A DNA stretch of 37,021 nt from Catajapyx aquilonaris (taxonomy: Eukaryota), in contig JYFJ02003836.1 in assembly GCA_000934665.2 (NCBI GenBank), forward strand, positions 1-37,021, given 5' to 3'. The notes beneath the pieces are model-generated. The model had not been told where the DNA came from. It saw only the letters and a list, made by a program, of their open reading frames with translations, and ran no database searches. The translations under genes were made by a program, and so were the position numbers. Positions 4,271 through 35,923 of this stretch are shown here, piece by piece; within the stretch, counting starts at the first letter, position 1, and the number at the start of each line of letters is the position of its first letter.

Positions 4271-6852
4271 TTATTTTTTATGCAGGATATGAAATGCGAA
4301 TTCCAAAACAAACACCAAAATCGCAACTAGGTGGCAAAATATTACACCGAAGAAGATTCCTTTCGTTTGACTGAAATTGAGAGCAAGGGACGGAGTAGGC
4401 AGCAAGTAATTCTTCTCCCTGGCTTCAAAAATCTTCCCAACGTAAACAGATTCGTAAATGTAGTTTCGATAATAACCCAGCAGGCCAGCAGAGTCCATTC
4501 GTATCAAAAGCGAGTTGAAACGAGGAGTGAGGACACTGTGCTTGGGAAACACCATGGAGCCGTAATATTTGGTTGACGTTTCTTCCGATGAAAGAAACGG
4601 CCATTTTCCAGCCATGTCCAAGAAATTAGACGCTTCCAGGAGCAAGATGTTTTGCGCTCCAAAACAGACGTAGTCTTCGTCTAAGGCCATCTGAAGGCAA
4701 TCCTCGAAGGTGTCCACAACTTCTATCCCATCGGAAAACTTGTGGTGATGATCCAGATCGGACTCGCTCATAATCACCCGGGCATATAGAGCGTGCATTG
4801 CTGTGCTGCCCCATCTCCATCCCTCTCGATTTGTCAACTCTGCGGTGGATCTGTACCGGGAAAAACATGGAATCAAGCTGTGGTGTTTTACACCATAATA
4901 TTGTGATTTGCCACTTTCAGTTTGGAATTAACATGACCTAAGTTTATTAAGTTATATTAGAGATGCTGGGCGGGGATACTTTTTGCATTCCCGTAATTCA
5001 TACCTGGGAAGCATCTCGTGATCCGGGTTGGCCAGAAACCCGATCAGCTTGGCCGTGTATCCACATGTGATGACCACAGCGAATGTCCACCAGAGAGAGA
5101 GGAACATCCTGGCAGAGTGTGACCTCGGGACAAGGTTTGGGTTCTCCTCGATCAGGGTCAGGAGGACATAGGTCAGGGAGTAAGGGAAGAGGGGAGGGGA
5201 GGGCTTGGAGAAGGGGGATGCGACCTTCTTGATGGTGACCAGGAGGAGAAGCCAGAGGAAGAGGCTTCCGATGATGCAGGAGATGGCGATCAGGACCCAC
5301 ATTCCCTTGGTGTACGGTCGGATTATCACGTCCCAGGAATTAATTACACGTGGTTTGCGAGTAAGGCATGCTCCTTGAGATAAGTGATAAATGTACCCAT
5401 ATTCGATAACCTCGAGGGGAGCAGTGAACGTGACTGTAATTGCACCAAGATCGTATTTTCTATACAAAACGGCGCCAACCATGCCAATCCATGTTCCGTA
5501 GTCCATCTTTGGTTCCACAGTCACTGCATTTTCCATCGTCTCCACGGTAAGCTCAAAATTAATTCTGTGTGCCAGTTCATAATATACAAGTTCGGCAAAA
5601 TGATCAATAGGTCGCCAGGAGTAAAACCTCTCTTGTATGTCATTTATGTCTGATGATATCGGGAGAGGAGAAATAAACCGGAAGTGCTTTCCTTGGAGAT
5701 TTCTCGTGAAGTCAGGATATAGCTCATCAAGAGCCCAGGAAGTAGATTCGATTTGGACTATGGGCTTTTTTTCTTTGTTGCAGAAGAAACAGTTTGACCA
5801 AAAAGAGAATACTTCCATGTCCACCACAATGTTGCGTCTGTAAGTTATAAAAGTATATAGTCTGACAAGCAGTATTCTGGATATCCAACATCAAGACGTA
5901 ACATCTTAGAAAAGGTTCTTGAGTGTAAGTTATTCTGAGGAATGCTATCAAAATCAAGCAGTGCTCAAAAACACTTTGCAAGGTTGAAAACATTTCACAA
6001 AATTCTCATTCTTTTCTCTGCTCTGATAATATAGTTACGTAGAATAGTAACATTTCAGTGCGCTGTTTAAAGAAAAATAATATTTCGTCAAGTACGCGCT
6101 ACCTGATGTAACTATTTTATTTGGCAATAGTCGAACATAATGTTTTCCTAGCGCCTCAGTTATCGTGATAGAAGGAGCCTGAATAATTTCACACTGTCAT
6201 GTTTTTAATGTCTGAATTTTTTACGAGTATTTTGTGCAGAAGATTCCTCTGTCTAAATAGTGACACTGTAGCCTGTAGGTCTGTAGGCTATCATTGCAAG
6301 CAAGTCTCCTACCACTCACCTGAGTATCCTGGAGTGTGGGTGCTGCAGTATCTCCTCCACCCCTCCATCCCTGGTGAAGAAGACGAAGTGGTGCAGACGG
6401 GTGTTGAGGAGGACACTGGCTGCAGTGGTCTCGATCAGTGATTCGAAGTTGTAGTGGTGAAGGAAGAAGACGAACAAAGTGCAATGGGACAAGTGTTTGG
6501 CTTCAGGACGATGCAACCAGTCGAACCAGTATGTCACTGGTGCTGTGTAGTTGACTGTGGGCTCCGTGGCCTCTGTGGTGGTGGAGTCTTCCTGTGGCCC
6601 GAGTCTGATGTGCAGAGTCAAGTGTTGGTCATCTGGACTGATGGGCCTGTCCACCAAGCGAGCCAGTTGGTTGGGCAGACGGGAGTAGTCGTGGGCCAGG
6701 ACTGTCAGGCAGGTGCTGTCCAGCTGGGTCTGGATGGCCTCCAGAAGGAGGATCTCTCGCTCAAGTGTCGCGTTGTCACCCTCATCTCCTAGGCGGATTT
6801 GGAGGGAAACGGGGGACAGCAGGACGACAATGGTGCTGAGGAGAGAAAACAT
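4271..6852 (-). CDS. Divergent ionotropic receptor A; exons 6852-6320, 5837-5004, 4850-4271 (648 aa; in-frame alternative ATG at 6861)
   Basis: GT-AG sites join in frame (1947 nt). Signal peptide; S1 motif GTWIGMVGAVLYRKYD; IRPY..GMW before M1; PRSHSARMFLSLWW and GYTAKLIGFL (SYTANLAAF equivalent); S2 FPKHS.L.PRFN..L.RMDSAGL; final TM helix. Confidence 0.9.
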
Positions 6853-8040
6853 TGTCTGCATAGTGCTCGTATCAAGTGGGGCACTTATTCTATGGCTAAT
6901 GGCTCAGAAAAGGGCGCAACTGAAAGGAAATCTTGTTGATTTAATCGACCGTGACCGACTGTTCTTTGACATTTGAGCCCTTTGCATTCCCATATGTCTA
7001 TTAATTGAGTCGTGATGTAAAATACAGGGCATTGCGCATTATTATTAATTCCTCTTAAAATTCCGAAGTAAATTTAAGTGGATACAAAGCAACAAAGGAG
7101 CCGACTCTGGGGAAATGGGAGTCACATTATTCGACATGTTTGTACTGGAACCTAATTTCTTCTGTCGACTAACCTTGAACATACCTATTGATCCTCTTGA
7201 GGAATAGTTGTTTCAGTCGCAGTTTCGTCTCCAGAATGTGCGTGGCCTATGAGTAATTGAATGGCTTTTCTCTTGCGAAGCCTCCCAGTAACTAATAGGC
7301 CAGAAAATTAAGAAAGTCGTAATAATAGTGGACACCAACCAAGAGGCAGGAGACATCCAGTTGTGAATATTAGATCTGCATACCGAAACGAGGTGATGTT
7401 ATTAGAGTCGTGGGTGATATTTTCTTTAAGCATAATTTTTGGCGTGCATAAAAAACAACCAGACTGATCAGGCTGAATAACAGTAAATTACAGCAAGATT
7501 CAGTGCTTTATATCGATTAAAGAAGAAGTGCAAACTCAAAATCAAGCAAAAGTGACTTGAAATAATGCTAACATGCAAGAGTATTCAATGTCCATTAAAA
7601 CTTTGACACACCTGACCTGATATTAATAATGTAAAAACACCAGTACTTGCGCTAAATTTATATTGCCAGATTTCAGACTAGAGGTTACGCCCAGCACTTT
7701 CCATTCAATCTATGCACTTACGTATTATATGCACCCACTCCGCGCGATTGGTTTGGATTATTAATAGTTGCTTCCCAATAAAGACCCTTAAAAAATCGTA
7801 GTGATTATGGTGCTACAAAGTCGTTATTTTCGAACAGTTGATTTTATTGGTTCTGAAAAATTAACTGCTAGTTTTGGGTTGAATGAAAGCATATTAATTC
7901 CCTGAATCCCTTCCTCCAATCATAATATTCTACAGGAGAAAATAAATAAGTCTACATATTGTAAAAGCTGTTTGTACTGTATTTGACGTCATCACAAATG
8001 ACAAATTATGATTCATACTGTTATTAACGGGTCTGGTATA

Positions 8041-8141
8041 GTTAATGGTATAGGAACTGAGGCAATTAAGGCAATAAGTGTGATGATATTAAATATCATC
8101 ACACTTATTGCCTTAATTGGCTCAGTTCTTATACCATTAAC
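8041..8141. repeat. ~100-bp near-perfect palindrome
   Basis: GTTAATGGTATAGGAACTGAGGCAATTAAGGCAATAAGTGTGATGATAT is followed almost immediately by its reverse complement (2 mismatches). Confidence 0.85.
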
Positions 8142-8192
<51 letters not shown>

Positions 8193-8534
8193 GATAATTC
8201 TGAGGTACCGTAATGTGCTTTCGCCCCCACATCGGGGCGTATCGCACGGACCTTTATTTATTGAGGTACATTTGGTGCCTATTCATTTGAAGCGCCCAGG
8301 CCCACGGGCAGGATGACAAGACGGGATGTGCAAGGTGCAGTGCAATGTCTTAATGTGGCCATTTTTAGTGAACTCCCCCGGGTGGTTTAGTCTGTTGGAA
8401 ATACCACCCGAGACGAAGCCAGAGGTGACCCTGAACTCTGCACGAGATGAAGGGGGTGTCCCAGGGTTGGGATCGAACCCGGGACCGTAACATCCGTGGG
8501 CGCATACGTTACCGCTGCACCACTTCGCCTCCCC
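8142..8534 (-). mobile_element. tRNA-derived SINE (family 2) with (GAT)n tail
   Basis: Minus-strand head GGGGAGGCGAAGTGGTGCAGCGGTAAC...GGTTCGATCCC. Body shared with 10145-10355. (CAT)n at 8142-8190. No clear TSD. Confidence 0.8.
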
Positions 8535-8898
8535 ATATTTCATCTATTTAATAATTGGTAACTCTGTAAAAGGGCGGGCCCTTTTCGGAGAACACCATGC
8601 AAAAGGGATCAGAAACAACAATGGTGCAAGGCATACATCATAATAAAGAAATACATAATTGACTCACGAAACATATATGCAAGAAACAGGATAATATACA
8701 CAATGAATCCAACAAACGCTTTTTGTTCAACTATTAAGAGATCTGGGATTTTCACATGAGACAACAAAGGAAATGAAGGGATTCTAATGTTCTTATGGGA
8801 CATAGCTCGGCCGGTCAAGGTAAGAGAAATGTCATATTACACCAAACATTATAAATGACGTGCACAGAAGTGCAATATTGAACAGTGACAGACACTTA

Positions 8899-9258: not shown

Positions 9259-12200
9259 TCATAACAAAATAACATCATTTTTATGCAGGCGATGACAGGC
9301 TAATTCCACCGCAAATACCACAACTGCAATGACGTGGCCAAATATTGTACCGAAGAAGATTCCTTTGGTTTGACTGAACTTGAGGGCGAGGGACTGGGTC
9401 AGCAGCAAATAATTCTTCCTCCTTGCTTCAAAAATTCTCCTAAAGTAAACAGATTCGTAAACGAATTTTCGATAGTAAGACAGCAGACCAGCAGCGTCCA
9501 TTCGGATCAAAATCGAGTCGAAACGAGGAGTGAGGACACTGTGCTTGGGAAACACCAAGGCGCCGTAATATCTGGAGGAGGAGTCTTCGGATGAGAGAAA
9601 AGGCCATGTTCCAGCCATGTCCAAGAAATTAGACGCTTCCAGGAGCAGGGTGTTCTGGGCTCCAATACACGAGTAGTCCTCGTCTAAGGCCATCTGAATG
9701 CATTCCTCGAAAGTGTCCGAAGCTTCTATCCCATCGGAAAACTTGTGGTGATGATCCAGATCGGACTCACTCAATATCACTCGAGCATATAGAGCGTGCA
9801 ATGCTGTGCTGCCCCATCGCCATCCCTCTCGATTTACCATATCTGAAGCATATCTGTAGCAGGAGAAATATTGAATCGGATAATTTTTTTTCTGCCTAGT
9901 CCATTACAGCTTAGAATTAAGGTGACTCCAACTAATGTAAATATAATTATTATAATCTAGAAACGGGTATATGACACTTTTATTGGTCATTATATATTTT
10001 TATTTATTTATTTTATTTTTTAAAATTATACCCCGTGCTAGGGCCGAAAGGCCCTCTTAGGGGGGTGGTAATACCACCATATTTGGAATCATGTGTATAA
10101 TTTACAATATTATTTAGTTGGTCCACGATTAGGGTAGGAAAGGAGGGGATGTGCAAAGTGCAAGTGCAATGTCGTTGCTTGGTCATTTTGTGAACTCCCC
10201 CGGGTGCATTAGTCTAGCGGAAATTTCCACCCGAGACGAAGCCAGAGATGGCCCAACTCTGCACGAGATGAAAGGGGGAACCCCGGGTTGGGTTCGAACC
10301 CGGGACCTTAACATCCGTGGGCGCATACGTTACTGCAGTGCCACTCCCGTCTCCCTATTGGTCATTATTTACTGCTGTGCGAACCTATATGCCACAACCC
10401 TAAGTATCATGTTTCAGCCACATTTCCCAATACAGTGTGAAGGGGGACGCTGTCGAAATTTTGGAAGGGGTTGAAAATGTGCCAGTTGTGGCGATTTTTT
10501 TCGGTTAGTGGAAGTGGTCAAAACCCAATAAACATACGAGTATATCAAAACAAAGAGAAAAACAAGATGAATTCAACTATGGAATTATTTTCCATCGGAA
10601 ATGTAACCAGAAAAACGTGTGCGGAATTCCACTGGTCACATGCTCAGTCACATGTCAAAGAATTTGTATGTCGGCAATTTATTAGTGTGTAGGTTATTTG
10701 CGTAACATCAGTCATATTTTGTGACAGGAGTTGTGATCCACACAAGCTTTAATATGTTCAGTTTCAAGCCTGGTACATGCATGGTTCACGAGAAAATATT
10801 AGAGATTTTTCTCGGGTTATCATTATTAATTTTCGGGGACCCAAATTCTTGTATATGTGACCGATGGAATTCCACACACATTTTTCTGGTTACATTTTAA
10901 AGGAAAACTAATTCCACAGTTGCATTTCGTTTTTATTTTATTTGATATGTATAATATTATGTTTAAAGAAAACCTAGGCTTTATTTTCAGTCCCTTATAA
11001 TTTTTTTTTATATTTTCCCCCTCCACACGGTATTGTGCAATATAATTATGCCTCCAGGGGGGTGAGGGAGTGTGGGAGGGCGGAGCAAAGCGAGTATGCT
11101 GAATAAAGTCCCCTGGCGAGGATGTAGGAGGAGGAGGAAGAATATAAATTATATGATGGAAAAGATCTCCCACGTCCCGAGGTCGTAGAAGGCTGGGAGA
11201 ACCACAGTTTGATTCCTTACCCACGAATTAGTTGAGCCAGCCCAGTCCAGAGCCCCATTGCCTCACAAAGCGAGTAGGTGGCGTTAATAAGCCTGAACGA
11301 CCAGAACTATCAGTTCTATAGCTCGTTTTTTTCGCCCAATGGCCGTTTTCAGGGTTTGAGCCTAACATATCCATCGTGAGTGTTTGACTATGATTGTGAT
11401 GAAGCCATTAAATGTAATACGCTGTGCAGAAGTGCACTATTTTATGATATCTATCGCGATTCGTACCTGGGAAGTGTCTCGTGATCCGGGTTGGCCAGAA
11501 ACCCGATGAGCTTGGCCGTGTATCCACAGGTGATGACCACTGCGAATGTCCACCAGAGAGAGAGGAACATCCTGGCAGAGTGTGACCTGGGGACAAGGTT
11601 TGGGTTCTCCTCGATCAGGGTCAGGAGGACATAGGTCAGGGAGTAAGGGAAGAGGGGAGGGGAGGGCTTGGGGAAGGGGGAGGTGACCTTCTTGGTGGTG
11701 ACCAGGAGGAGAAGCCAGAGGAAGAGGCTTCCGATGATGCAGGACAGGGCGATCAGGAGCCACATTCCATTGGTGTACGGTCGGATTATCACGTCCCAGG
11801 AATTAATTACACGTGGTTTGCGAGTAAGGGATGCTCCTTGAGAAATGTGGCAAAAGTACCCATATTCGACAACCTCTAGCGGAGCAGTGAACGTGACCGT
11901 AAATGCACCAAGATCGTATTTTCTGTACAAAACGGCGCCAACCATGCCAATCCATGTTCCGTCGTCCATCTTTGGTTCCACAGACACAGCGTTTTCCATC
12001 GTCTCTACAGTAATCTCAAAGTTACTTCTAATCGCCAATTCATAACATACAAGTTCGATAATATGATCTATAGGTCGCCAAGAGTAAAACCTATCTCGTA
12101 TGTTATTTCTGTCTGACGATATCGGGAAAGGAGAAACAGCCAGGAAGTGAGTTCCATGTAGATCTCTAGTGAAATCGGGATATAACTCATCAAGAGCCCA

Positions 12201-13135
12201 AGTAGTGGACTGGATTAGGACTATGTCTGATTTTTCTTTGTTACAATAGAAGCAGTTTGACCAAAACGAGAAGGCGTCCACGTCGACAGCAAGGTTGCGC
12301 CTGGAAGATACAAAATATGGAGCATGGTAGGCAGTCTAATGGATATGTAAAGGCAATGCAAATAATCAAAATACTGTAATGTGGAAGATCGTCAATTTCT
12401 CTGGTTTTATTCCCCACAGGCCAACGTATAGCTTTCCTGGTGCAACATAATAATATTGTCAGTGGGAGCCTTAATTGCACAATTCTTTTGGTGTCTGCAT
12501 TTTCTAATGTAGTATTTCGTACAGGAAGACTCTAGGATTAATGTTGCAATAAAGACAGTGGCATAATTATACAGGAGATCTCCTATCACTCACCTGAGTA
12601 TCCTGGAGTGTGGGTGCAGAAGTATCTGCTCCACCCCTCCATCCCTGGTGAAGAAGACGAAGTGGTGCAGACGGGTGTTGAGGAGGACACTGGCTGCAGT
12701 GGTCTGGATCAGTGACTCCAAGTTCTGGTGACGGAGGAAGAAGACGAACAAGGCGCAGTTGGAGTGATGGGTGGCACCGGGAAGATGCAGCCAGTCGAAC
12801 CAGTAAGACACTTGTGAAATCGTTTCATTGACGTTCAGATCATTTTGTGTCGCCTCCGTGGCAGCAGTGTCATTCTCCAAATGTGTCGGTCGAATAAGCA
12901 GCATCATTCGCTCTTTTTTATGAAATCGGCCCAGCAATTGTGTCAGGTGTTGAGGAAGATGATCATAATCGTGGGAAATGGCAATCAGGCAAGAGTCGTC
13001 GAGCTGGGACTCAATTTCTTCTAAGAGAACATGTTCGCCAGGAAATGTCTTGTTGTCACTTTCAGGCATATGTGAATTAGCAGATGCAATGGAAATTAAA
13101 AACGTAACCGCAAGAACGAACATATTGCCACCCAT
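9259..13135 (-). CDS. Divergent ionotropic receptor B; exons 13135-12594, 12300-11467, 9853-9259 (656 aa; start could be 13123)
   Basis: In-frame GT-AG joins (1971 nt) and the same IR motifs. Exons 2 and 3 are closest to gene A. Distinct signal peptide MFVLAVTFLISIASA. Intron 2 is expanded to 1.6 kb. Confidence 0.9.
9994..10355 (-). mobile_element. SINE family 2 copy in intron 2 of gene B
   Basis: B-box GGTTCGAACCC on the minus strand, A-rich tail, 13-bp TSD TATTGGTCATTAT at 9981-9993 and 10356-10368. Confidence 0.88.
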
Positions 13136-13674: not shown

Positions 13675-13675
<1 letters not shown>

Positions 13676-14625: not shown

Positions 14626-16793
14626 TTACTTCCAGCGACGGATACTACACGAGAGAGAAATTTTTTCGGCAATGAACGTGATAAGTGCAATTGAATGCAA
14701 GAGTATAATGCCATAAAACATTCCCTGCATCTGAATAAAATTCAAAGCCATGGATGGGGCATGCCACACTGGACGGTTTCCAGCTCTGGCCTGGTTGACT
14801 TTTTCTATTTTCATTACGCTGAAACTGTACAGTGTGTAGTATTCGGAAAGACCAGAGGCCTCCAAGTGCAAAAATTTGCTATCGAAACGAGGGATAAGAA
14901 TGTCATGCTTGGGGAAAAAAACGGCGCCAAATAATTTAACAGAAGTGTCCATCGCCTTGATGAAAGGCAGGTTTCCTTCTTTGTCCAGAAATTCGTAGGC
15001 GGCCTGCATCAGTAATAATTCCCCGCTAATGCATGCAAAATCTGAGGTTAGAGATTCACGGAGACATTCGTCGAAATTTTCTATCATCTGAATTGGCTCG
15101 AGCAAGGCAGTCAGAGATTCCGCTTCTGCATCAGCGAATAAAATCTTGGCAAATATCACGTGCATTGGTATGGAACCCCAAGACCATCCTGGGCGATACA
15201 CCAACTCCAGTAGGTTACTGCAACAAAAAATTTACAATATTAGATGAAGAACTGATAATGGTGCGTAGTTTGCGTAAAAATTATTCATACCTTGGTAAGG
15301 ATTCATGCAGTGGATTGGCTAGAAACCCGATCAACTTGGCGGTGTGTCCACATGTGATGACCACTGCGAATGTCCACCAGAGAGAGAGGAACATCCTGGC
15401 AGAGTGTGACCTCGGGACAAGGTTTGGGTTCTCCTCGATCAGGGTCAGGAGGACGTAGGTCAGGGAGTAAGGGAAGAGGGGAGGGGAGGGCTTGGGGAAG
15501 GGAGAGGTGACCTTCTTGGTGGTGACCAGGAGGAGAAGCCAGAGGAAGAGGCTTCCGATGACGCAGGAGATGGCGATCAGGACCCACATTCCGTAGGTGT
15601 AGGGCCGGATTACCACATCCCATGAGTCTACCACTCTTGGTAGGCGTGTAACAAATGTCATTACAGTATAGTAATAGAAGTATCCGTACTCGATTACCTC
15701 GAGAGGATTGGGGAATGGTATTGAAAAAGGACAGAAGTCGATTCTCTGGTGAAGAATCTCCCCAATCATCCCTATCCATGTCCCGTCGTCCATCTTGTTC
15801 CCAAGAGCAATTGCGTTTTCCATTATTACTAGCACCAAATTAAAATTCATTGAGTCTGTCAGGTCCCGGTATAATAACTCGGGAAAGACAAGTGTCTTGC
15901 GATCTCTGAATTTTTGGTCCACAACGGTGGTGTTGGTTTCGATGTCCGCAAAAGCGAAAGTTCCCACCAAAGATTTTCCGTGCAAGTCCATAGTAAAATC
16001 CGGGAACAGAATGTCCAGTGTAGATGTGAGCTGATCGATCTCGACTACTTTCTGCTCTCCGTTGTCGCAGAAGAAGCAATTTGTCCAGAGAATTTCTGTT
16101 TCCATGTCCACTACAAGTTTATACCTGAAAGAATATGTGTACTTATATCCTGTACACGATATGCAAGCTGATGCTATAAAAATATTATCATCATGCGCAC
16201 ATTCTGCTTATACACCCTATAAAATAATGAGTTTATGATAATTATGGACTGAATGCTTACTTGAGATGGCGTGATCGTTGATGCAACAGGATCGTGTCCA
16301 CTCCCCCATCCTTGGTGAAGAACAGGAAGAGATGCATCCTGGTGTTGAGGAGGACAGTGGCTGCAGTGGTCTCGATCAGCGATTCGAAGTTCTGGTGGTG
16401 AAGAAAGAAGACGATGAAGGTGCAGTGGGACAAGTGTTTCGCTTCAAGACGATGCAGCCAGTCGAACCAGTACGTGACTGGTGCAGTGTAGTTGACTGTG
16501 GGATCCGTGACCTCTGTTGTGGCGGAGTATTCCTGTGGCCCGAGTCTGATGTGCAGAGTCAAGTGTTGGTCATCTGGACTGATGGGCCTGTCCACCAAGC
16601 GAGCCAGTTGGTTGGGCAGACGGGAGTAGTCGTGGGCCAGGACTGTCAGGCAGGTGCTGTCCAGCTGGGTCTGGATGGCCTCCAGAAGGAGGATCTCTCG
16701 CTCAAGTGTCGCGTTGTCACCCTCATCTCCTAGGTGGATTTGGAGGGAAACGGGGGACAGCAGGACGAAAAGGGTGCTCAGGAGAGAAAACAT
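14626..16793 (-). CDS. Divergent ionotropic receptor C; exons 16793-16261, 16124-15291, 15217-14626 (652 aa)
   Basis: In-frame GT-AG joins (1959 nt). IR motifs DGTWIGMIGEILHQRIDF, PRSHSARMFLSLWW, GHTAKLIGFL, FPKHDILIPRFD. Confidence 0.9.
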
Positions 16794-17704
16794 TGTCTGC
16801 AGAGGTCAGAGTGATCGTAGCAAGTGGTACATTGACTATCTGTAACTATAACTGCGGTCTGCGGATAAGACAGTATGCTCAACTGTGAAAGGACAATTTG
16901 TGTCTATATGAGCATGACCGTGGCATGACCAGCAGTAATGCTTTGAGATTTGGGCCTAGCAATCACGTAACCAATCCCTGCTATATTTGTATGTCACAAC
17001 TCCTGCCCTTCAAGTACTATTTCGGCATGTGAGGTGCACACGTGCGTGAATTTAAGTGAACGGAAATAAACCGCTGTAGGAAATGAACCACGCAGGCTTA
17101 TCTACATGCTTCCAATGGAACCTAATTTTACGGTCGAATTATCTTAAGCACACTCGAACACTTTGAATAGGTCTACTGAGCTGATTTCTAAAACAAATAT
17201 TTCGGGAAAATGCGCAACAGTTTCAGGGTCAGAGGTGGTACAAAATTAATAAATGTGGGTTTATTGATAGGTTCAGGTTAAGATATCACTAGAAGAACCC
17301 TCGCTTCGCGCGCAATTTTCTATGGTGCAGGCCTAGAAAACCACTCGCTTCGTTAGTTTTTTCTATCTCTGTGGACTGCGGTTTAAACCTTGTTGTTAAT
17401 GATGCCCATCCATCACCTATCCGCATCATATTCTCCCCCCCCCCTCTCTCTCTCTCTTCCTGCATAATTATACGATCGTATGCTCCCTGTCGTGGTGCTG
17501 ATTCGAAAGCGGGAGGTTTGCAACACGCCTTTTTTACGTTCGGTTGTACGTATTCGCCGGTAGTAAGTTTCTGACACTTTACCGAAAGAAGTTGGGAGTA
17601 GGCGGGTGCCTCGAAGACATTGTACTGTAGAGTACTTCCCATCTGTGAAAGTACCGCAAGGGTAGACCTACTCCAGCAGTTCTGAAGCAGTCCATTTGAT
17701 GATA

Positions 17705-17812
17705 AATTTTTAATGCTCTTCTAATGCTCTTGTAATGCTGCCGTGATGCTTTATGTTTCTAAAAAGCACCACACAGGAGCATTAGCAGAGCATTAGAAGA
17801 GCATTAAAAATT
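17705..17812. repeat. Imperfect inverted repeat built of TAATGCTCTT units (second copy ~27583-27676)
   Basis: AATTTTTAATGCTCTTCTAATGCTCT...AGAGCATTAGAAGAGCATTAAAAATT; probably a MITE relic. Confidence 0.65.
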
Positions 17813-23847: not shown

Positions 23848-24442
23848 TCAACGAGGGAAATATATTAAGGAATGCAAGAGTATGAAGTGTTCGACAGTTG
23901 TGGTTCACCATATACCGCTACTTGTCATCTCTTGCCAAACTGATTCCTTAAACTAGGCTTTTAATTATTATAATTATTTTGGCATATCAGATGGCACATG
24001 TATTTTTCTAATAAATGTCGCTAAAACTTGTTTCTATCGTGGCTAATAACAATTATTGCAACATGTGAAAGCAGTGTGATTTGCTGTCGACTATATGGAA
24101 TTGTGCAAAGTTAGATTATTATTTTCCTTTCGTGGATGATAACATGAAAACAAACTACTGGTGATATTTTATGCAGTCACTTGCAATACATAGACGTTGT
24201 CAGCTACTTATAAGCTAATTTCCTTGCTAATAACATTGTCGTGTCGAAGGCCAATCACTTTTTAAAACATATGTACTAGATGCGGGTTGCCGTAGACATT
24301 GTCGTGAAACTAATTACGATTAATCCACTTATGTTAATGTAGCAATACTGAGATTGAGCTGTGCAAAAATTACATTTCTAACAAGCCTGACAAGAACAAA
24401 TAATTATGTCCAGTTATATCTGCTTGTGTTTATGGCTGTGGT

Positions 24443-26704
24443 TCACACAAGGCCGCGCTTGATATGGTAGAAAACAACCTTCTCAATGACTGCAGCGACA
24501 ATTGCAGCGCAGTAAGTCAACATGACACCGTAATACAGGCCCTTCATTTGATTGAAATTCAATGCCATTGATGGGGTTTGCCACAAGTGATTTCTAACTC
24601 TAGCCTCGTCGATTTTGAGTACTCGGTGTACAATAAGATAGTATTGTTCGTAATATTCCAACAACCCAGATGCCTCCAGATGAAGAAAAAACTTGTCCAC
24701 ACGTGGAACGAGGATGTCGTGCATGGGAAAAATTAGGGTGCCCAGGTATCTTATGGATGTGTCAATGGACATGGAGAAGGGAAGGTTTCCTTCCATGTCC
24801 AGGAACTCGTAGGCGGCCTCGGTGATGTGCAATTCGCCACTTACACAGGCATAATCTTCTGTTAGGGCTATGTGGAGACACTCGTCGAAGGTCTCAATCA
24901 CTTCCATTGAGTCCCCTAGAGCAATCAGCGATGGTATATCCGACTCGCCGAGTAATACCTTGACAAATAAACTGTGCAGGGGTATACTTCCCCATGACCA
25001 TCCTGAACGACTCACCAACTCTGGTATGTTACTGCAACAGGAAACTATTGTTAGCAGTCAGTTTTAAATTTTAATGAATGAATTAAATTATGCATGGCAG
25101 GTATTCCTACAACGTACCTTGGTAATGACTCGTGATCCGGGTTGGCCAGAAACCCGATCAACTTGGCCGTATATCCACAGGTGATGACCACCGCGAATGT
25201 CCACCAGAGAGAGAGGAACATCCTGGCAGAGTGTGACCTCGGGACAAGGTTTGGGTTCTCCTCGATCAGGGTCAGGAGGACATAGGTCAGGGAGTAAGGG
25301 AAGAGGGGAGGGGAGGGCTTGGGGAAGGGGGAGGTGACCTTCTTGGTGGTGACCAGGAGGAGAAGCCAGAGGAAGAGGCTTCCGATGATGCAGGAGATGG
25401 CGATCAGGAGCCACATTCCGTAGGTGTATGGCCGGATTATCACGTCCCAGGAGTCGACTATTCGTGGTACGCGTTTGACAAATGTGACATGAGAAGAATA
25501 AAAGGGATAAATCATCTCTGTGACCTCCATTGGCTCGCTGAATGCCAGTGTTCCAGGGCAGAAGTCGACTCTCTCGTAAAGAATCTCTCCGACCAAACCT
25601 ATCCATGTCCCGTCGTCCATCTTATTTTCAAGCGGTATTGCGTTTTCCATCTCTACCATCACCAATTCAAAATTCATTAAGGCAGTCATGTCCTTGTAAT
25701 ATAGCTCGTGCTCCCAAACTGTCTTTCTATCGTAGAATCTTTGCCTTACGACATCCCAGTCCTTTTCGAAGTCAGGTAACCCATACAATCCTACCAAAGT
25801 TTTGCCATGTAAGTTGAAGGTAAAATCCAGATATAGTTTGTCTAAGTTGGAGGTGTACTGGTCCACCTCAATCACTTTCGGCTGTCCTTTGTCGCAGAAG
25901 AAGCAGTTCGTCCAGCGTACGTGTGTTTCCATATCCACTACAAGTTTATATCTGCAAGGATGCATTCCAATAATTGTTGCGCAAACTGGGGCATTCTCCA
26001 ATGAGAGTGCGAGGCAAAATTGAAAGGTTTTAAAACAAAATTATACTACTCAAACCAAACTCTACTTAGGTAGAGTTCAAATGGTCACCTTACATGCTTA
26101 TTAGTTATTACAATCATGTCGTCTTATGTACAGTACATCGCTGAGGCGAAGGACACTGAATGAGCACTTACTTGAGATGGCGTGATCGCTGATGAAACAG
26201 GATCTTGTCCGCTCCCCCATCCTTGATGAAGAATAGGAAGAGATGCATCCGGGTGTTGAGGAGGACCGTGGCTGCAGTGGTCTGGATCAGTGAGTCGAAG
26301 TTGTAGTGGTGAAGGAAGAAGACGAACAAAGTGCAATGGGACAAGTGTTTGGCTTCAGGACGATGCAACCAGTCGAACCAGTACGTGACTGGTGCTGTGT
26401 AGTTGACTGTGGGCTCCGTGGCCTCTGTGCTGGTGGAGTCTTCCTGTGGCCCGAGTCTGATGTGCAGAGTAAAGTGTTGGTCATCTGGACTGATGGGCCT
26501 GTCCACCAAGCGAGCCAGTTGGTTGGGCAGACGGGAGTAGTCGTGGGCCAGGACTGTCAGGCAGGTGCTGTCCAGCTGGGTCTGGATGGCCTCCAGAAGG
26601 AGGATCTCTCGCTCAAGTGTCGCGTTGTCACCCTCATCTCCAAGGCGGATTTGGAGGGAAACGGGGGACAGCAGGACCAAAAGGGTGCTCAGGAGAGAAA
26701 ACAT
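24443..26704 (-). CDS. Divergent ionotropic receptor D; exons 26704-26172, 25951-25118, 25031-24443 (651 aa)
   Basis: In-frame GT-AG joins (1956 nt), IR motifs; recent duplicate of gene E including the introns. Confidence 0.9.
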
Positions 26705-29429: not shown

Positions 29430-29556
29430 AATTACGATTAATGCACTTGTGTTGATGTAGCAATACTGAGATTGGGCTGTGCAAAAATTACATTTCTAAC
29501 AAGCATGACAAGAACAAATATGCCCAGTTATATCTGCTTGTGTTTATGACGGTGGT

Positions 29557-31812
29557 TCACACACGGCCGCGCTTGTTTTGGTAGAAAACAACCTTCTCAA
29601 TGACTGCAGCGACAATTGCAGCGCAGTAAGTCAACATGACACCGCAATACAGGCCCTTCATTTGATTGAAATTCAATGCCATTGATGGGGTTTGCCACAA
29701 GTGATTTCTAACTCTAGCCTCGTCGATTTTGAGCACTCGGAGTACAGTTAGATAGTACTGTTCGTAATATTCCAGCAACCCTGATGCCTCCAGATGAAGA
29801 AAAAACTTGTCCACACGTGGAACGAGGATGTCGTGCATGGGAAAAATTATGGTGGCCAGGTATCTTATGGACGTGTCGATGGACATGGAGAAGGGAAGGT
29901 TTCCTTCCATGTCCAGGAACTCGTAGGCGGCCTCGGTGATGTGAAATTCGCCACTTACACAGGCATAATCTTCTGTCAGGGCAATCTGAAAACACTCAGC
30001 GAAGGTCTCAATCACTTCCATTGAGTCCCCTAGAGCAATCAGCGATGGTATATCCGACTCGCCTAGTAATATCTTGATAAATAAACTGTGCAGGGGTATA
30101 CTTCCCCATGACCATCCTGAACGACTCACCAACTCTGGTATGGTACTGCAACAGGAAACTATTGTTAGCAGTCAGTTTTATTTTAATGAACGAATTAAAT
30201 TATGCATGGCATGTACTCCTACATCGTACCGTGGTAATGACTCGTGATCCGGGTTGGCCAGAAACCCGATCAACTTGGCGGTGTATCCACAGGTGATGAC
30301 CACTGCGAATGTCCACCAGAGAGAGAGGAACATCCTGGCAGAGTGTGACCTCGGGACAAGGTTTGGGTTCTCCTCGATCAGGGTCAGGAGGACATAGGTC
30401 AGGGAGTAAGGGAAGAGGGGAGGGGAGGGCTTGGGGAAGGGGGAGGTGACCTTCTTGGTGGTGACCAGGAGGAGAAGCCAGAGGAAGAGGCTTCCGATGA
30501 TGCAGGAGATGGCGATCAGGAGCCACATTCCCTTGGTGTACGGTCGGATTAGCACATCCCAGGAGTCGACTATTCGCGGTACGCGTTTGGCAAATGTGCC
30601 ATGAGAAGAGTAAAAGGGATATACCATCTCTGTGACCTCCAGTGGCTCGCTGAATGCCAATGTTCCTGGGCAGAAGTCGACTCTCTCGTAAAGAATCTCT
30701 CCGACCAAACCTATCCATGTCCCGTCGTCCATCTTATTTTCAAGAGGTACCGCGTTTTCCATCTCTACCATCACCAATTCAAAATTTATTAAGGCAGTCA
30801 TGTCCTTGTAAAATAGCTCGTGCTCCCAAACTGTCTTTCTCTCGTAGAACCTTTGCCTTACGACATCCCAGTCCTTTTCGAAGTCCGGGAAACCGTACAA
30901 TCCTACCAAAGTTTTGCCATGTAAGTTGAAGGTAAAATCCGGATATAGTATGTCTAAGTTGGAGGTGTACTGGTCCACCTCGATCACTTTCGGCTGTCCT
31001 TTGTCGCAGAAGAAGCAGTTCGTCCAGCGTACGTGTGTTTCCATATCCACTACAAGTTTATATCTGCAAGGATGCATTCCATGTATAATATTGTTGTACA
31101 AATTGGGGCATTCTCCTATCAGAGTGTGATGCAAAATTGAAGGGTTTTAAAACAAAATAATACTACTCAAACTCTACTTAGGTAGAGTTCAAATGGTCAC
31201 ATTACATGCTTAAGTTATTAGTTATTACAATCATGTCGTCTCATGTGTACATCGCTGAGGCGAAGGACACTGAATGCGCACTTACTTGAGATGGCGTGAT
31301 CGCTGATGAAACAGGATCGTGTCCGCTCCCCCATCTTTGATGAAGAACAGGAAGAGATGCATCCGAGTGTTGAGGAGGACCGTGGCTGCAGTGGTCTGGA
31401 TCAGTGAGTCGAAGTTCTGGTGGTGAAGGAAGAAGACGAACAAAGTGCAATGGGACAAGTGTTTGGCTTCAGGACGATGCAACCAGTCGAACCAGTACGT
31501 CACTGGTGCTGTGTAGTTGACTGTAGTGGCCTCTGTGCTGGTGGAGTCTTCCTGTGGCCCGAGTCTGATGTGCAGAGTAAAGTGTTGGTCATCTGGACTG
31601 ATCGGCCTGTCCACCAAGCGAGCCAGTTGGTTGGGCAGACGGGAGTAGTCGTGGGCCAGGACTGTCAGGCAGGTGCTGTCCAGCTGGGTCTGGATGGCCT
31701 CCAGAAGGAGGATCTCTCGCTCAAGTGTCGCGTTGTCACCCTCATCTTCAAGGCGGATTTGGAGGGAAACGGGGGACAGCAGGACGAAAAGGGTGCTCAG
31801 GAGAGAAAACAT
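29557..31812 (-). CDS. Divergent ionotropic receptor E; exons 31812-31286, 31063-30230, 30145-29557 (649 aa)
   Basis: In-frame GT-AG joins (1950 nt), IR motifs; 6-bp in-frame deletion in exon 1 relative to D. Confidence 0.9.
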
Positions 31813-32669
31813 TGTCTGCAGAGTGGTCGTAACAATTATTGTGCCACAGCTAACGGCAGAGACGTAAGCGGTACTTAAATGACAACTAGTCTCTATATGA
31901 GCAGATTCGGAAATGCTTTGACATTTGACTTTTGATTCCCGTAATTATTACCCCTTGATTGATAAAGCGAAAAACCTATTTGCAAATAATATTTGATTTC
32001 AAATCAAATATTATTCTGGAATATGAAGTGCACCCGTGCAGTAAATATAATAGGCATACAATAAGAAACTGTGTTATTGATATGACATGCTTTAACTGGA
32101 ATCTAATTTTACGCTCGAACTCACGGGGACATTGTTACTCTTCGAATGAGGTATAGTGAGCTTAGTTTTGCTACAATTGGCCTACCGCGGACTACTGAGT
32201 AAATCTCTTTATTTATTGAATTTAGAAATGATAGAAACAAATCACTTTACTATACCACATGTCTAATTGCCTTTTACATGAGAGGACCGCCACATTGTTT
32301 TCTCGCAAACTGTTTTTATAACCACGTAAGATGAGCAAAAGTGAAGCTGAGTTTTTCATGCCTATGGCGATAATATGGATTTTAAAACACAATTTTGTTC
32401 CAATTGCCTACTTACAATAATTATTTCCAACAGAGGCGGGAAGGAAGCTTTAATCATTTTTGTTCTAATTATTTACGAGCGTGACAGATTATAGCAGCAT
32501 AGCCTGTTCTGTCGGCAATCCGTTGTATTACCCCCCCCCCCNCCCCCCTATCTGCGAGTACCAGACCAGGCTCCAGAATTTTTTTATACTATGGTCATGT
32601 GAGGGTAAGGAGGACCTGCACCTCATTATCTGCTGGCACCACTATATTTGGGAAAAGACGGGAGAGATA

Positions 32670-33242
32670 TAGTAAAACTTCTATAAGTCGAATATCCATG
32701 GGACCGGAAAAAACTTCGAGTTATAGAAGATTCGAGTTAGAGACGTTTGGAATTTTTTACGCACAGAAGTCTATGAGGAAGGCAAGGAGGAAGGCTGCCT
32801 TTATATCCAGAGACGAAAGGTGTTCAAAACTTAAAAATAACCGTCACTATCACACAATGTTCCTCACTGTTTTGTTTTTAAAAAATCTCCATTATGGACA
32901 TTTTACCTACTGTTAGATTCGAGGGTGCGATTGTCACAATCGAGTCAAACACTTCTTTCGGTATGTCTGGTAGATCAGGAAATTGAGCATTTCTGTACAT
33001 ATGTGGCTTACTCTCGACCCTTCGGCTGGAAAATGAGAAAATTTTCCGTACTCTTCGACTTAGGGAGACTGAAAATGCATTGATGTCCCATCGTAAGGCC
33101 CTGCCTGCACTTCGAGTTAGAGAAATTCGAGTTGGGGACGTTCATTTCCTATTATTTTACATTCTGACCAACCAAGCTCACGATTTTCTTCTACTTATAG
33201 AAAACTTCGACTTAGGGAAATTCGACTTATAGAAGTTTTGTG
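32670..33242. mobile_element. Tc1/mariner-pogo-like MITE
   Basis: TIR core AAAACTTCTATAAGTCGAAT at both ends, TA flanks, subterminal TTCGA(G/C)TTA repeats; extreme termini degenerate. Confidence 0.75.
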
Positions 33243-33412
33243 TATATGACAAATGTTGATTGACTAGAGCAGTAGTAAATTAATATGCCCAAAATCTGTA
33301 TATTCTGGTGGTCATTATGACTTAAATAGTAGAATTAAAAGGGGAAGATGAACATGTGCATAAATTACAGTAACTTAATTTTGTGCCTATACGAAGAAGG
33401 ATAAAGCAAAAT

Positions 33413-33680
33413 TACCGTCCATGTGACAGGCTTTTTGTCTCACTTCATGTTTTATTCATGTTTCAGGGTACACGAAAAGGACACCTCTGGGATACCTGGT
33501 GCACCTCAGCGGCAGATTTTGGTATGTCCCATCTTACACCTGATCACAAAGGTTGACAAATACGGGTAAGGTCAACAATACATAACTCAATGCCAAACCG
33601 GAGAACAAACCTTGCATTTGTTTTATATTCAGGGACAGGGCTACAACAAGTATTACTTTTTCGGGGCCTCTTTGAGATTA
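33413..33680 (-). repeat. Degenerate tandem copy of the 3' end of gene F (last TM, C-tail, start of 3' UTR)
   Basis: 33413-33680 aligns to 33681-~33955 (TACCGTCCATGTGACAGG...AAACCTTGCATTTGTTTTATATT) with indels. Confidence 0.85.
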
Positions 33681-33767
33681 TACCGTCCATGTGACAGGTT
33701 TTTAGTGTCACTGCATGTTTTATTCAGGGTACACGAAAAGTACACTTCCTGGATACAGGATGCATCT

Positions 33768-35923
33768 TCAGAGGCAAACTTTGATACGTCTCACTTTACA
33801 CCTGATCACAATTTTCTCAATAAGAAATGCGGGTAAGGCCAACAATAGATAACTCAATATCAAGCCGTAGAATAAACCTTGCATTTGTTTTATATTGAGT
33901 GCCAGAGAAGGAATCTGCAACAAGTACCGCCTTTTCCGGGCATCATTGAGCTTATCCACGAAAGGAGTGAAATATGAATACTCCAAATGATACGCATTCA
34001 ATCCAGCAGCATCCGATCGAAGAATCAGGGAATCAAAGCGCGGAAGAAGGACATCATGCTTCGAAAACACCATCCCGCATATGAACCCAGAGGAAGGGTT
34101 GTCCACCGCAACAAAAGGATAGTTGGCCTCCATGTCCAAGAAATCGTAGGCTGCAAAACGGATATACCAATTTTCGCTCAGGCAGGCGTAATCTTCGTTG
34201 AGGACTGAGAGGAGACATTCCTCGAAGTCGTCTCTGGATTCAAGGTTGTCTGCCAGATACTGAAGGCTGTCCAAGTCAGCCTCTCCAAGGAGCATCTTGG
34301 CAAAAATCGCGTGAAGGGAAATGGTGCCCCATCTCCAACCTGGACTCGATATCAGGTCTTCCACATTCCTATACATGCAAGGTGAAATAATGAGTCAGAA
34401 GACACAATTACATCACGGGTAGGCCTGAAGTTGTACTTACTTTGGGAGCGTCTCATAAAGCGGATTAACCAGAAACCCGATCAACTTGGCCGTGTATCCA
34501 CATGTGATGACCACTGCGAATGTCCACCAGAGAGAGAGGAACATCCTGGCAGAGTGTGACCTCGGGACAAGGTTTGGGTTCTCCTCGATCAGGGTCAGGA
34601 GGACATAGGTCAGGGAGTAAGGGAAGAGGGGAGGGGAGGGCTTGGGGAAGGGGGAGGTGACCTTCTTGGTGGTGACCAGGAGGAGAAGCCAGAGGAAGAG
34701 GCTTCCGATGATGCAGGAGATGGCGATCAGGAGCCACATTCCGTAGGTGTACGGTCGGATTATCACGTCCCAGGAGTACAGAATTCGAGGTTTGCGAGTG
34801 AGATAAGTCATGTGAGATCGGTAAAAATGGTAACCAAACTCGACCACTTCAAGAGGACCAGCAACGGCAATTGTTGCAATACTAAAATCAGCCTTCCGGT
34901 TGAGAATAGCTCCGGTCACTCCAATCCATGTGCCATCGTCCATTTTCTCATCCGCGGACACTGCATTTTCCATTAGATCAATCTTCAGCTGGAAGTTTAT
35001 CTTGACGCTCAAGTCTCGAAACAATAATTCCACTAGTTGAAGGTGTTTCCGATCATAAAATCTCTTTTCTATGAGATCATAGTCTGTGAGCAAGTTGTCA
35101 AATGGATAAGCCGCCACAACGGTCTTACCATGCATGTCAAATATGAAATCAGGGAATAAATTCAGCAGACTGGAAGTATTTGAGTCTATTTCGACAATTT
35201 GTGCTTCTCCGTGGTCGCAGAAGAAGCACACTGACCATCGTGACGAGGTCTCCATTTCCATTACCAACTTTTTGCTGTAAGTAACAAGATCAAGGGATTA
35301 TTACTCACATATTTCAAGATATGTGCAACTAAATATTCTGCTATATAATTCGGATTGTATGGACAGACTACAGAATTTACTCACCCGAGTATCCTGGAGT
35401 GTGGATGCAGAAGTATCTCCTCCACCCCTCCATCCCTGGTGAAGAAGACGAAGTGGTGCAGACGGGTGTTGAGGAGGACACTGGCTGCAGTGGTCTGGAT
35501 CAGTGACTCCAAGTTCTGGTGACGGAGGAAGAAGACGAACAAGGCGCAGTTGGAGTGATGGGTGGCACTGGGAAGATGCAGCCAGTCGAACCAGTACGTG
35601 ACTGGTGAGGTGTGGTTGACTGTCGGATCTTCAACTATGACCTCTGTGGTGGTGGAGTCTTCCTGTGGCCCGAGTCTGATGTGCAGAGTCAAGTGTTGGT
35701 CATCTGGACTGATGGGTCTGTCCACCAAGCGAGCCAGTTGGTTGGGCAGACGGGAGTAGTCGTGGGCCAGGACTGTCAGGCAGGTGCTGTCCAGCTGGGT
35801 CTGGATGGCCTCCAGAAGGAGGATCTCTCGCTCAAGTGTCGCGTTGTCACCCTCATCTCCTAGGCGGATTTGGAGGAAAACGGGGGCCAGCGGGACGAAA
35901 AGGGTGCCCAGGAGAGAAAACAT
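33768..35923 (-). CDS. Divergent ionotropic receptor F; exons 35923-35385, 35274-34441, 34368-33768 (657 aa)
   Basis: In-frame GT-AG joins (1974 nt). DGTWIGVTGAILNRKADF, PRSHSARMFLSLWW, GYTAKLIGFL, FSKHDVLLPRFD. Confidence 0.9.

Follow-up and report, generated by a model that had tools for sequence, protein, structure and literature searches.

This locus raises the question of how a short channel-coding stretch came to be so uniform in a cluster of receptor genes that otherwise differ widely from one another. The window (i.e., the whole stretch of 37,021 nt that was analyzed) carries six ionotropic-receptor (IR) genes in tandem, each intact and made up of three exons, all on the minus strand. 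Each has an open CDS of 648-657 amino acids, and exon 2 measures 834 nt in all six. Gene A (4271..6852; 648 aa) is composed of exons 6852-6320, 5837-5004 and 4850-4271, with GT-AG introns and a single open CDS. The remaining genes are B (9259..13123; 652 aa; exons 13123-12594, 12300-11467 and 9853-9259, with a second intron of 1613 nt), C (14626..16793; 652 aa; exons 16793-16261, 16124-15291 and 15217-14626), D (24443..26704; 651 aa; exons 26704-26172, 25951-25118 and 25031-24443), E (29557..31812; 649 aa; exons 31812-31286, 31063-30230 and 30145-29557) and F (33768..35923; 657 aa; exons 35923-35385, 35274-34441 and 34368-33768). The Pfam family Lig_chan (PF00060) is detected in exon 2 of gene B (E = 3.4e-11) and in gene D (E = 2.5e-11; 44 bits versus a cut-off of 30.8), and the gene D protein can be aligned to GluD2, NMDA and AMPA receptor chains. 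Among the relatives of the six proteins that bear a name, the best are springtail iGluR-domain proteins, at 26-30% identity. Judging from their sequences, these are functional-looking, divergent IR genes of the smell/taste type.

The six genes comprise the lineages (A,B), C, (D,E) and F, and the members of the A/B and D/E pairs are alike in their flanks as well. The duplicated unit of D (24312-26727) matches that of E (29430-31835) at 94.8%, and gene E is apparently a recent duplicate of gene D. The original prediction held that introns can be aligned only between D and E; these indeed rise above shuffled controls, at 94-95% identity, with the addition of a weak signal in intron 1 of A/B (72%; score 52 versus a shuffled maximum of 21). 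Apart from the young pairs D/E and A/B, the duplicates are probably old, since the flanking synonymous sites are saturated and the introns cannot be aligned.

At the 3' end of exon 2, all six genes contain a block of 278-324 nt with 95.3-98.4% identity between lineages. In an alignment to GluD2 chain 9nwq_A (pre-M1 to the SYTANLAAF motif), the block extends from the S1-M1 linker/pre-M1 region through M1 and the pore loop to the SYTANLAAF-like gate helix; it thus spans everything that separates the two halves (S1 and S2) of the ligand-binding domain. Its coordinates, obtained as maximal-scoring segments and converted to window positions, are 5015..5338 in gene A (exon 2 nt 500-823; 96.0-97.1% identity to D, E and F, with five private sites in the core), 11478..11801 in B (96.6-97.4% to D, E and F), 15315..15628 in C (exon 2 nt 497-810, or 533-810 versus A/B; 95.3-97.3% to the others), 25129..25454 in D (98.4% to F), 30241..30566 in E (98.1% to F, with an exact run of 239 nt) and 34469..34777 in F (exon 2 nt 498-806), again all on the minus strand. 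An independent repeat finder returned a 300-nt family of six copies at 92-96% identity, and the two results agree with the six positions proposed originally. The match of 236 consecutive bases reported between D (25193-25428) and F (34516-34751) is exact. The limits of the block vary by pair (nt 497-533 of exon 2 at the 5' side and 804-823 at the 3' side), and it ends just past the gate motif, 12-30 nt short of the exon end.

Amino-acid identity between lineages is 91-96% in the block, 37-49% in S1 and 31-44% in exon 3. The claim that S1 and S2 are diverged even as protein consequently applies between lineages, but the A/B and D/E pairs remain similar. Likewise, the notion of a constant channel is appropriate for the core block; the last membrane helix, encoded by exon 3, is variable among the six genes, though it is part of the channel domain, and a second homogenised block, at the N-terminus, had been missed.

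As anticipated, the near-identity of the block includes its silent sites. Between-lineage pairs show synonymous p-distances of 0.07-0.21 in the block versus 0.49-0.92 in S1 and 0.66-0.83 in exon 3, i.e., silent divergence is not equal in the cassette and its flanks. Identity at third codon positions ranges from 0.89 to 1.00 in the core, compared with 0.16-0.63 in the flanks. Where the amino acid is invariant and its codon degenerate, the codon columns are identical in all six genes in 74 of 85 cases in the block, compared with 8 of 72 in S1 and exon 3 together (Fisher p = 5e-23). GC3 reaches 0.80-0.82 in the block, compared with 0.43-0.58 for S1 and 0.49-0.54 for exon 3, whereas GC12 is nearly flat (0.45-0.46 versus 0.39-0.44 in the flanks); over 44 windows, GC3 is correlated with third-position identity (Spearman 0.74, p = 1e-8). 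Raised GC3 is the usual footprint of GC-biased conversion.

Per-segment trees, a check suggested in the original prediction, set the block apart from the rest of the genes. The S1 and exon 3 trees are concordant, ((A,B),((C,(D,E)),F)), with 99-100% support, and their lengths are 1.81 and 2.34, respectively. The tree built from the block has about one tenth of their length (0.19) and is incongruent with them, grouping C with F (89%). Within nt 498-806 of exon 2, 27 of the 309 sites are variable, comprising 18 singletons and 9 informative sites, and the four-gamete test is failed by 16 of the 36 informative-site pairs. The informative sites are confined to the block edges (nt 499-542 and 772-791), such that a uniform centre with private mutations only is bordered by reticulate, mosaic edges. 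The signal of reticulation comes from these nine sites, at some of which recurrent mutation could have contributed. Since the S1 and exon 3 trees agree, the exchanges were patches rather than crossovers, which would have joined S1 to the S2 of another gene. Between lineages the block has diverged by 1.6-4.7%, the same order as the D/E introns (5-6%), and conversion is therefore neither very recent nor very frequent.

Formally, the contrast between a little-diverged block and strongly diverged flanks is symmetric, and the same pattern could arise if all six genes were young and their ligand-binding parts, silent sites included, had diverged by locally accelerated mutation. However, introns 1 and 2, which border the diverged coding parts, align like shuffled sequence in every pair other than D/E, apart from the weak A/B signal in intron 1 noted above, which means that divergence is not limited to the ligand-binding codons. 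Such mutation would also leave the GC3 difference unexplained, and we know of no germline mechanism that accelerates mutation locally in this manner. We find this reading hardly credible.

The silent sites could also have been held uniform, with no copying, if the nucleotides of the block were themselves under constraint, for instance from an overlapping reading frame, a regulatory element, or an RNA that has to fold or be edited. All six genes do have a second sense frame open over the block, and all six copies have the block, so that no unconverted copy serves as direct counter-evidence. An alternative sense frame is nevertheless open in 31% of synonymous shuffles of the block's own codons, the antisense frames contain stops, and the RNA fold is no better than that of shuffled sequences (z = -0.41). 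A search of 1.84 billion representative proteins gave 1082 relatives, the best at 26-34% identity, and no relative was found in the metagenome contigs searched; hence, there is no sign of deep conservation. Constraint would leave both the GC3 step and the four-gamete failures unexplained, and the sister block in exon 1 (described below) is unconstrained, since gene B differs there. This explanation is therefore considered highly improbable.

In the comparison of these paralogues of one array, interlocus gene conversion is, with high probability, the best explanation of the block, in keeping with the repeated intergenic conversion originally proposed. Five independent lines of evidence support repeated conversion confined to the channel block: silent-site identity remains once amino-acid invariance is controlled, elevated GC3 is restricted to the homogenised stretches, the block tree is both short and incongruent with the flank trees, the informative edge sites fail the four-gamete test, and introns are unalignable and flanks saturated. 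A GENECONV-like permutation (polymorphic-site) test, also among the checks suggested, detected exchanges in exon 1 and nothing else. The test is blind to the pore block because every copy in the window is converted and there is no outgroup copy; the case consequently rests on rate heterogeneity, GC3 and reticulation.

The second homogenised block is more uniform than the channel core and covers the signal peptide and codons 1-80. It is carried, always on the minus strand, by five genes (A, C, D, E and F), one dead relic and one fragment at the window edge. In gene A it occupies 6613..6875, from about 23 nt upstream of the ATG through codon 80, and in the other genes 16554-16816 (C), 26465-26727 (D), 31573-31835 (E) and 35684-35946 (F). 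Among these five genes the synonymous p-distance is 0.02-0.05, the codon is shared in 66 of the 70 degenerate columns with an invariant amino acid, and GC3 is 0.71-0.72. The unconverted homologue, codons 1-80 of gene B (12884..13123), shows a synonymous p-distance of 0.66-0.70 to the other five genes and a GC3 of 0.41. In the dead relic (2182..2666), codons 1-56 of the block are joined to a diverged remnant of the exon 3 tail in shifted frames (tblastn HSPs at 2643-2476, 2480-2322 and 2313-2182), and both S1 and the channel block are missing. Over positions 2477-2666 its DNA matches the live copies at 93-97% identity, and its exon 3 remnant shows protein identities of 33-69%. The edge fragment (1..145; codons 1-40 by tblastn) belongs to the N-terminal block of one more gene, cut off by the start of the window, and shows 94-98% identity to the other copies. 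The N-terminal block thus offers two internal controls: gene B escaped, and the dead relic still carries the block. Retention by the relic implies that homogenisation in the array needs no selection on the recipient.

A different concern is that pooled paralogue reads led assembly or polishing to write one consensus into six copies. The read evidence derives from four DNA runs of one sample in one study, the sample probably being the assembled one, and was seen as per-run de Bruijn contigs, which drop rare variants and break at the shared stretch. One contig, 15532-16480, reproduces the junction between the C flank and the block, crossing the 5' block edge with 0 other letters, and carries the C private site 15562 joined to C's own S1; among the pieces listed, it is present in runs X1 and X2, and to 16372 in X4. 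Among 40 of the 112 'other letter' rows, none falls in a block core, and three, at 34449-34460, lie in the variable exon tail of F. Moreover, the copies do differ, with the private and shared variants enumerated above, and their graded mosaic edges and GC3 step are unlike consensus collapse. The pooling of reads itself presupposes true sequences that are nearly identical. We judge an artefact of this kind improbable.

We propose that the 278-324-nt segment has been replaced time and again by the sequence of other copies, through non-crossover interlocus gene conversion, with the result that all six genes share nearly one channel core in DNA. Tracts would start centrally and stop at variable points. 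Purifying selection on the channel would keep homology, and conversion would continue there, in a self-reinforcing process limited to the block; the diverged ligand-binding flanks may halt heteroduplex extension, or converted ligand-binding sequence may be selected against. No more than this passive process is required: conversion depends on homology and goes on wherever purifying selection has preserved that homology.

The same conversion may, alternatively, be accompanied by selection favouring a common channel or assembly module (e.g., for one co-receptor partner or alike gating), whereby converted variants spread and conversions into the ligand-binding lobes are purged. Both ends of the block fall at transitions between ligand-binding and transmembrane domains, the shared tree of S1 and exon 3 indicates that both lobes of each binding domain are kept together, and the second uniform block, at the N-terminus, is also a non-ligand part. 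The same limits, however, are predicted by the passive, homology-dependent model, the dead relic too retains its block, and the last membrane helix is not uniform. In addition, uncorrected pN/pS in the ligand-binding parts of the young pairs D/E and A/B is about 0.25-0.46, with no gene-wide positive (diversifying) selection seen in these pairs. Selection for a common module is thus possible, though we would not expect it, and as between passive and selected uniformity of the channel core we incline slightly towards the former.

The closest known systems, as far as the accessible parts of the respective papers describe them, are the protocadherins. For the fugu Pcdh2 subclusters, regional conversion was argued on the same two grounds as used here, identity at silent sites and elevated GC3 (Yu et al. 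2007, PMC1852091), and it is reported for zebrafish and mammal protocadherins (Noonan et al. 2004, as described in Ohta's 2010 review, PMC3966226). Like the protocadherins, the IR array consists of tandem paralogues in which a discrete segment, near-identical down to its silent sites, lies beside diverged recognition domains; GC3 is higher in the homogenised part, which is membrane-proximal and non-recognition, and trees need the unconverted part. Unlike that family of cadherin adhesion receptors, the present one encodes ligand-gated channels. In fugu the homogenised segment takes up the entire 3' part of one variable exon, at >99% identity (PMC1852091), whereas the IR block is an internal patch of 0.3 kb, with limits on both sides and 95-98% identity, that separates the two halves of the binding domain, and a second patch is present at the gene start.

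In Drosophila, interlocus conversion was detected by GENECONV among chemosensory paralogues, IR orthologous groups included, and was treated as a disturbance of gene trees with small overall effect (Almeida et al. 2014, PMC4122928). The accessible text of that study names no domain-limited block common to a whole array, in contrast to the one block in all six genes here, and a block so distributed is missed by a polymorphic-site test. The array also resembles the IRs of early-branching hexapods and other arthropods, which form large, fast-evolving, clustered families with short N-termini and idiosyncratic introns. Campodea augens has 2,424 expanded IRs (PMC6938034). Both that paper and an arthropod-wide survey of chemosensory families (PMC5850775) describe birth-and-death turnover, and in their available text the term 'gene conversion' has 0 occurrences. 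When the channel block was compared by sequence with other scanned stretches of DNA, no look-alike turned up.

The array is most likely a clean example of an already known process, region-limited conversion, in receptors whose ligand-binding parts have diverged far from one another while a channel stretch of about 300 bases is nearly letter-identical.

The six neighbouring ionotropic-receptor (IR) genes of the window, designated A to F, are all intact and lie on the minus strand; stop-to-stop ORFs, splice-site inspection and the assembled models give each of them three exons (numbered in gene direction) separated by GT-AG introns. The proteins are 648-657 residues long, and exon 2 measures exactly 834 nt in all six genes. 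Exon 2 matches the Pfam family Lig_chan (PF00060) over residues 178-269, with 44 bits in D and 43.6 bits in B (cut-off 30.8). S1, the predicted ligand-binding half that precedes the channel, shows a weak match to Lig_chan-Glu_bd (PF10613; E = 0.012-0.027, 15-16 bits) that is below the cut-off of 30, and exons 1 and 3, the latter including the predicted second ligand-binding half (S2), match no Pfam family at E <= 0.1. Exon-2 residues 110-269 align in phmmer searches to GluD2, NMDA and AMPA receptor chains of solved structure. In the alignment to the GluD2 chain 9nwq_A (E = 2.4e-13), the gate motif SYTANLAAFL stands opposite GYTAKLIGFL of the window, with pre-M1, M1 and the pore loop likewise aligned. 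Hydropathy profiles contain an M1 peak in all six genes and, at about residues 618-646 of all six proteins, a last helix (peak 1.86-2.80, 19-residue window) that has no profile match; a signal-like N-terminus appears in five genes, B being under the threshold.

The positions of S1 and S2, before M1 and after the gate helix, respectively, agree with the IR/iGluR layout. Exon 1 (175-179 residues) encodes a short N-terminus that lacks a large amino-terminal domain, as fits divergent or tuning IRs; its structure model, built from the six-sequence alignment, was unusable (mean pLDDT 33.9). Exon 1 is thus predicted to carry the signal peptide and a short N-terminal region, exon 2 S1 together with pre-M1, M1, pore loop and gate helix, and exon 3 S2, the last helix and the tail. 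Judged by their sequences, A to F are divergent IR-type genes, whose closest named relatives in a library of 1.84 billion proteins are springtail iGluR-domain proteins (26-30% identity). Intron 2 of B (9854-11466) measures 1613 nt, compared to 72-153 nt in the other five genes, and contains a repeat copy with an 82% match to 8320-8550. The 3' end of exon 3 of F, comprising the last helix and tail, is tandemly duplicated directly downstream (33413-33681 / 33681-33955, 77%).

The 3' end of exon 2, from pre-M1 to the gate helix, is nearly identical in all six genes (hereafter, the pore block). A repeat finder recovered it as a 300-nt family of six copies with 92-96% identity, and maximal-scoring segments place its limits at exon 2 nt 497-533 and 804-823, that is, on the minus strand, A 5015-5338, B 11478-11801, C 15315-15628, D 25129-25454, E 30241-30566 and F 34469-34777. 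The original prediction had located this cassette to within a few bases, except for the 5' edge of C, which extends up to 28 bases farther out. The run of 236 exact bases that it reported between D 25193-25428 and F 34516-34751 is present, and E and F share one of 239 bases.

The regions flanking the block, S1 and exon 3, divide the genes into four lineages, (A,B), C, (D,E) and F. Between lineages, S1 has a synonymous p-distance of 0.49-0.92 and exon 3 one of 0.66-0.83, both saturated at the upper end of their ranges, and the pore block one of 0.07-0.21, so the near-identity claimed from inspection does extend to synonymous sites. The corresponding amino-acid identity reaches 91-96% in the block, compared to 37-49% for S1 and 31-44% for exon 3, and the description of both binding halves as heavily diverged at the protein level likewise holds. 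Restricted to columns with one and the same degenerate amino acid in A to F, the comparison gives codon identity across all six genes in 74 of the 85 columns of the block, as opposed to 8 of the 72 columns of S1 and exon 3 combined (Fisher p = 5e-23). The identity of the pore block exceeds protein-level constraint. The introns served as a neutral background: those of D and E align at 94-95%, intron 1 of A and B aligns weakly, and all other pairs are at the level of shuffled sequence. The introns had been considered unalignable except in D/E, which is correct for that pair but overlooks the weak A/B similarity. Since the introns beyond these pairs cannot be aligned while the silent sites of the block are alike, the genes are old and the block is young.

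Silent sites could also be held by a second reading frame, and a second sense frame is indeed open across the block. Such a frame, however, remains open in 31% of synonymous shuffles that draw on the codons of the block itself, and stops interrupt the antisense frames; dual coding was therefore rejected. RNA structure was discarded as well, the predicted fold being no better than those of shuffled sequences (z = -0.41). A constraint on the nucleotide sequence itself, to be recognized by deep conservation, was sought in protein libraries and metagenome contigs. A full HMMER scan of 1.84 billion representatives produced 1082 matches, the best at 26-34% identity, and no close relatives. A word-indexed search of exon 2 of D against longer proteins gave 841 candidates, none of them at E <= 1e-5, and a search of metagenome loci for the 108-residue block gave 261 pattern matches, none of which was confirmed.

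The block carries several signatures of copying between genes. Its third-position GC content (GC3) is 0.80-0.82, versus 0.43-0.58 in S1 and 0.49-0.54 in exon 3, with first- and second-position GC nearly flat, and GC3 is correlated with third-position identity (Spearman 0.74, p = 1e-8; 44 windows of 15 codons). The maximum-likelihood trees of S1 and exon 3 (lengths 1.81 and 2.34) agree on ((A,B),((C,(D,E)),F)) with 99-100% support. In the tree of the pore block (length 0.19), C no longer groups with (D,E) but with F (89% support); the comparison of per-segment trees, suggested earlier as a check, thus places the block in conflict with two concordant flanks. Exon 2 nt 498-806 contains 27 variable sites, of which 18 are unique to a single gene and nine are informative; of the 36 pairs that the latter form, 16 fail the four-gamete test. 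The informative sites are confined to nt 499-542 and 772-791, at either edge of the block; every change in its centre (nt 554-760) is private. The limits of the block also vary by gene pair, the 5' limit by up to ~35 nt and the 3' limit by up to 19 nt. Any crossover within it would have joined the S1 of one gene to the S2 of another; the single tree common to S1 and exon 3 therefore shows that sequence was exchanged in patches, with no crossover. A GENECONV-like permutation test of polymorphic third positions detected exchanges in exon 1 (p <= 0.0005 in 9 of the 15 pairs). The pore block escapes this test, since it is common to all six copies and retains few polymorphic sites. Taken together, interlocus gene conversion of the pore block is very probable, and it is demonstrated as far as a single genome permits.

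The homogenization of a pore cassette, as originally predicted, is borne out for the pore block but incomplete as a description, since part of exon 1 has been homogenized too. This N-terminal block occurs in five of the six genes (6613-6875 in A, 16554-16816 in C, 26465-26727 in D, 31573-31835 in E and 35684-35946 in F, all on the minus strand), and spans a leader of about 23 nt upstream of the ATG, the signal peptide and the remaining codons through codon 80. Among the five genes, its synonymous p-distance is 0.02-0.05, its GC3 is 0.71-0.72, and 66 of 70 invariant degenerate codon columns use the same codon. The counterpart in B (12884-13123) is at a synonymous p-distance of 0.66-0.70 from the others, with a GC3 of 0.41. 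The diverged version in B indicates that there is no universal nucleotide constraint on this stretch, and its low GC3 compared with the converted copies indicates that raised GC3 goes with conversion. The remainder of exon 1 is a mosaic, in which B 12588-12817 and F 35379-35608 are 96.5% identical and F clusters with A and B in the tree.

A further control is a dead relic at 2666-2182 (minus strand). It has lost S1 and the channel, and its N-terminal codons 1-56 are followed directly by a diverged, frameshifted remnant of the exon-3 tail. Its N-terminal block retains 93-97% DNA identity to the live genes; homogenization is thus independent of selection on the recipient. The start of another family member (codons 1-40 and leader), and with it one more copy of the N-terminal block, is found at 1-145 on the minus strand, cut by the edge of the window, and the region upstream of this copy resembles that upstream of the relic (1-587 vs 2522-3121, 82%).

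Near-identical copies might also result from collapse during assembly. The read evidence consisted of Logan contigs, built run by run from a single sample that is probably the one assembled. These contigs reproduce the flank of C joined to its block (15532-16480) with no other letters, and they end 30 nt beyond the private site of C at 15562, as expected of a 31-mer graph at a true repeat. Among the 40 rows of 'other letters' listed, out of 112, none falls within the block cores. The Logan contigs thus make an artefact less likely. Summed contig depth, which is not a copy number, is ~100-360 in bins with blocks, versus roughly 17-60 in most neighbouring repeat-free bins.

The upstream regions are paired differently from the gene bodies. 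C and D have 1.6 kb of upstream sequence in common (16248-18462 / 26155-28306, 86%), and E and F share ~0.45 kb (31322-32278 / 35421-36393, 87%). The bodies of D and E are recent duplicates (24312-26727 / 29430-31835), whose homology ends 23 nt before the ATG. The switch from one pairing to the other occurs within the N-terminal block, which suggests re-assortment of promoters at this point. The 7-kb gap between C and D contains an inverted repeat (18508-19845 / 20371-21708; 1.34 kb, 97.8%) with a spacer of ~0.5 kb, which probably represents one transposon or a pair of transposon copies. The intergenic stretches 22617-23283 and 32622-33288 are dispersed repeats of very high copy number in the reads, with a summed contig depth of ~16,000-72,000, compared to roughly 17-60 in most repeat-free bins. 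Three ORFs (267-593, 2811-3218 and 22322-22780, the last partly inside the 22617-23283 stretch) have in common a motif resembling a translated tRNA-derived element.

We consider a passive explanation the more likely one for the confinement of conversion to the block. The channel core would have been under purifying selection, which would have slowed its divergence, leaving it the sole stretch besides exon 1 similar enough for heteroduplex formation, and each conversion would restore identity and thereby ease the next. The diverged S1 and S2 would halt tract extension, or else selection would remove converted binding lobes. Tracts would begin centrally and end at variable points; a central start fits the uniform centre and mosaic edges of the block. 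At its exact centre, the coding strand bears a polypyrimidine run (exon 2 nt 618-656, 36 of 39 positions C or T; e.g., D 25296-25334, minus strand) that encodes the Pro/Ser-rich linker between M1 and the pore. One may speculate that this run is recombination-prone and initiates conversion.

The original prediction read the array adaptively, as a common channel or assembly module favoured by selection. That reading is compatible with the domain-exact limits of the block. The last helix is nevertheless variable and the dead relic was converted, which suggests that uniformity can arise without selection for it; the uncorrected pN/pS in the binding parts of young pairs is ~0.25-0.46, at which gene-wide diversifying selection is not evident. 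A broader combination, in which a constant-plus-variable design of IR arrays extends genome-wide and the pore block is seeded by the central polypyrimidine tract, is improbable on present evidence. Under such a design, short conversion blocks would keep the parts in contact with partner subunits (N-terminus and channel core) alike in many tuning receptors, and each binding domain would retain its own pair of lobes, which could then diverge. If true, it would be a protocadherin-like arrangement, reached independently in a ligand-gated channel family.

The clustered protocadherins, with their regional gene conversion, are the closest described system; the signature and logic are those of the A to F array, whereas the family and the geometry differ. 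Raised GC3 has been applied as a criterion of conversion to the fugu protocadherins (PMC1852091). In Drosophila IR paralogues, conversion was detected and is reported as minor and not as a domain block (PMC4122928). Chemosensory IR families are usually described in terms of birth-and-death evolution (PMC5850775), and the available text of papers on hexapod IR expansions treats birth-and-death turnover and does not mention conversion (PMC6938034, PMC5850775). Among the openly available papers listed by literature searches, no domain-limited or channel-core conversion block in IRs was evident. The process is already well known, and the array is a clean, well-controlled example rather than a new principle.

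For the IR family, the array represents a probable, sharply bounded island of concerted evolution within old paralogues. Unless the channel core and first exon are masked, phylogenies, dating and selection scans of such families will be misleading, and GENECONV-type screens can overlook a block that is present in every copy. The genes of the array are six natural chimeras, with one channel core, one N-terminus in five of the six and four ligand-binding lineages, and would make a convenient system for finding the IR regions that determine ligand tuning and those that determine gating or assembly.
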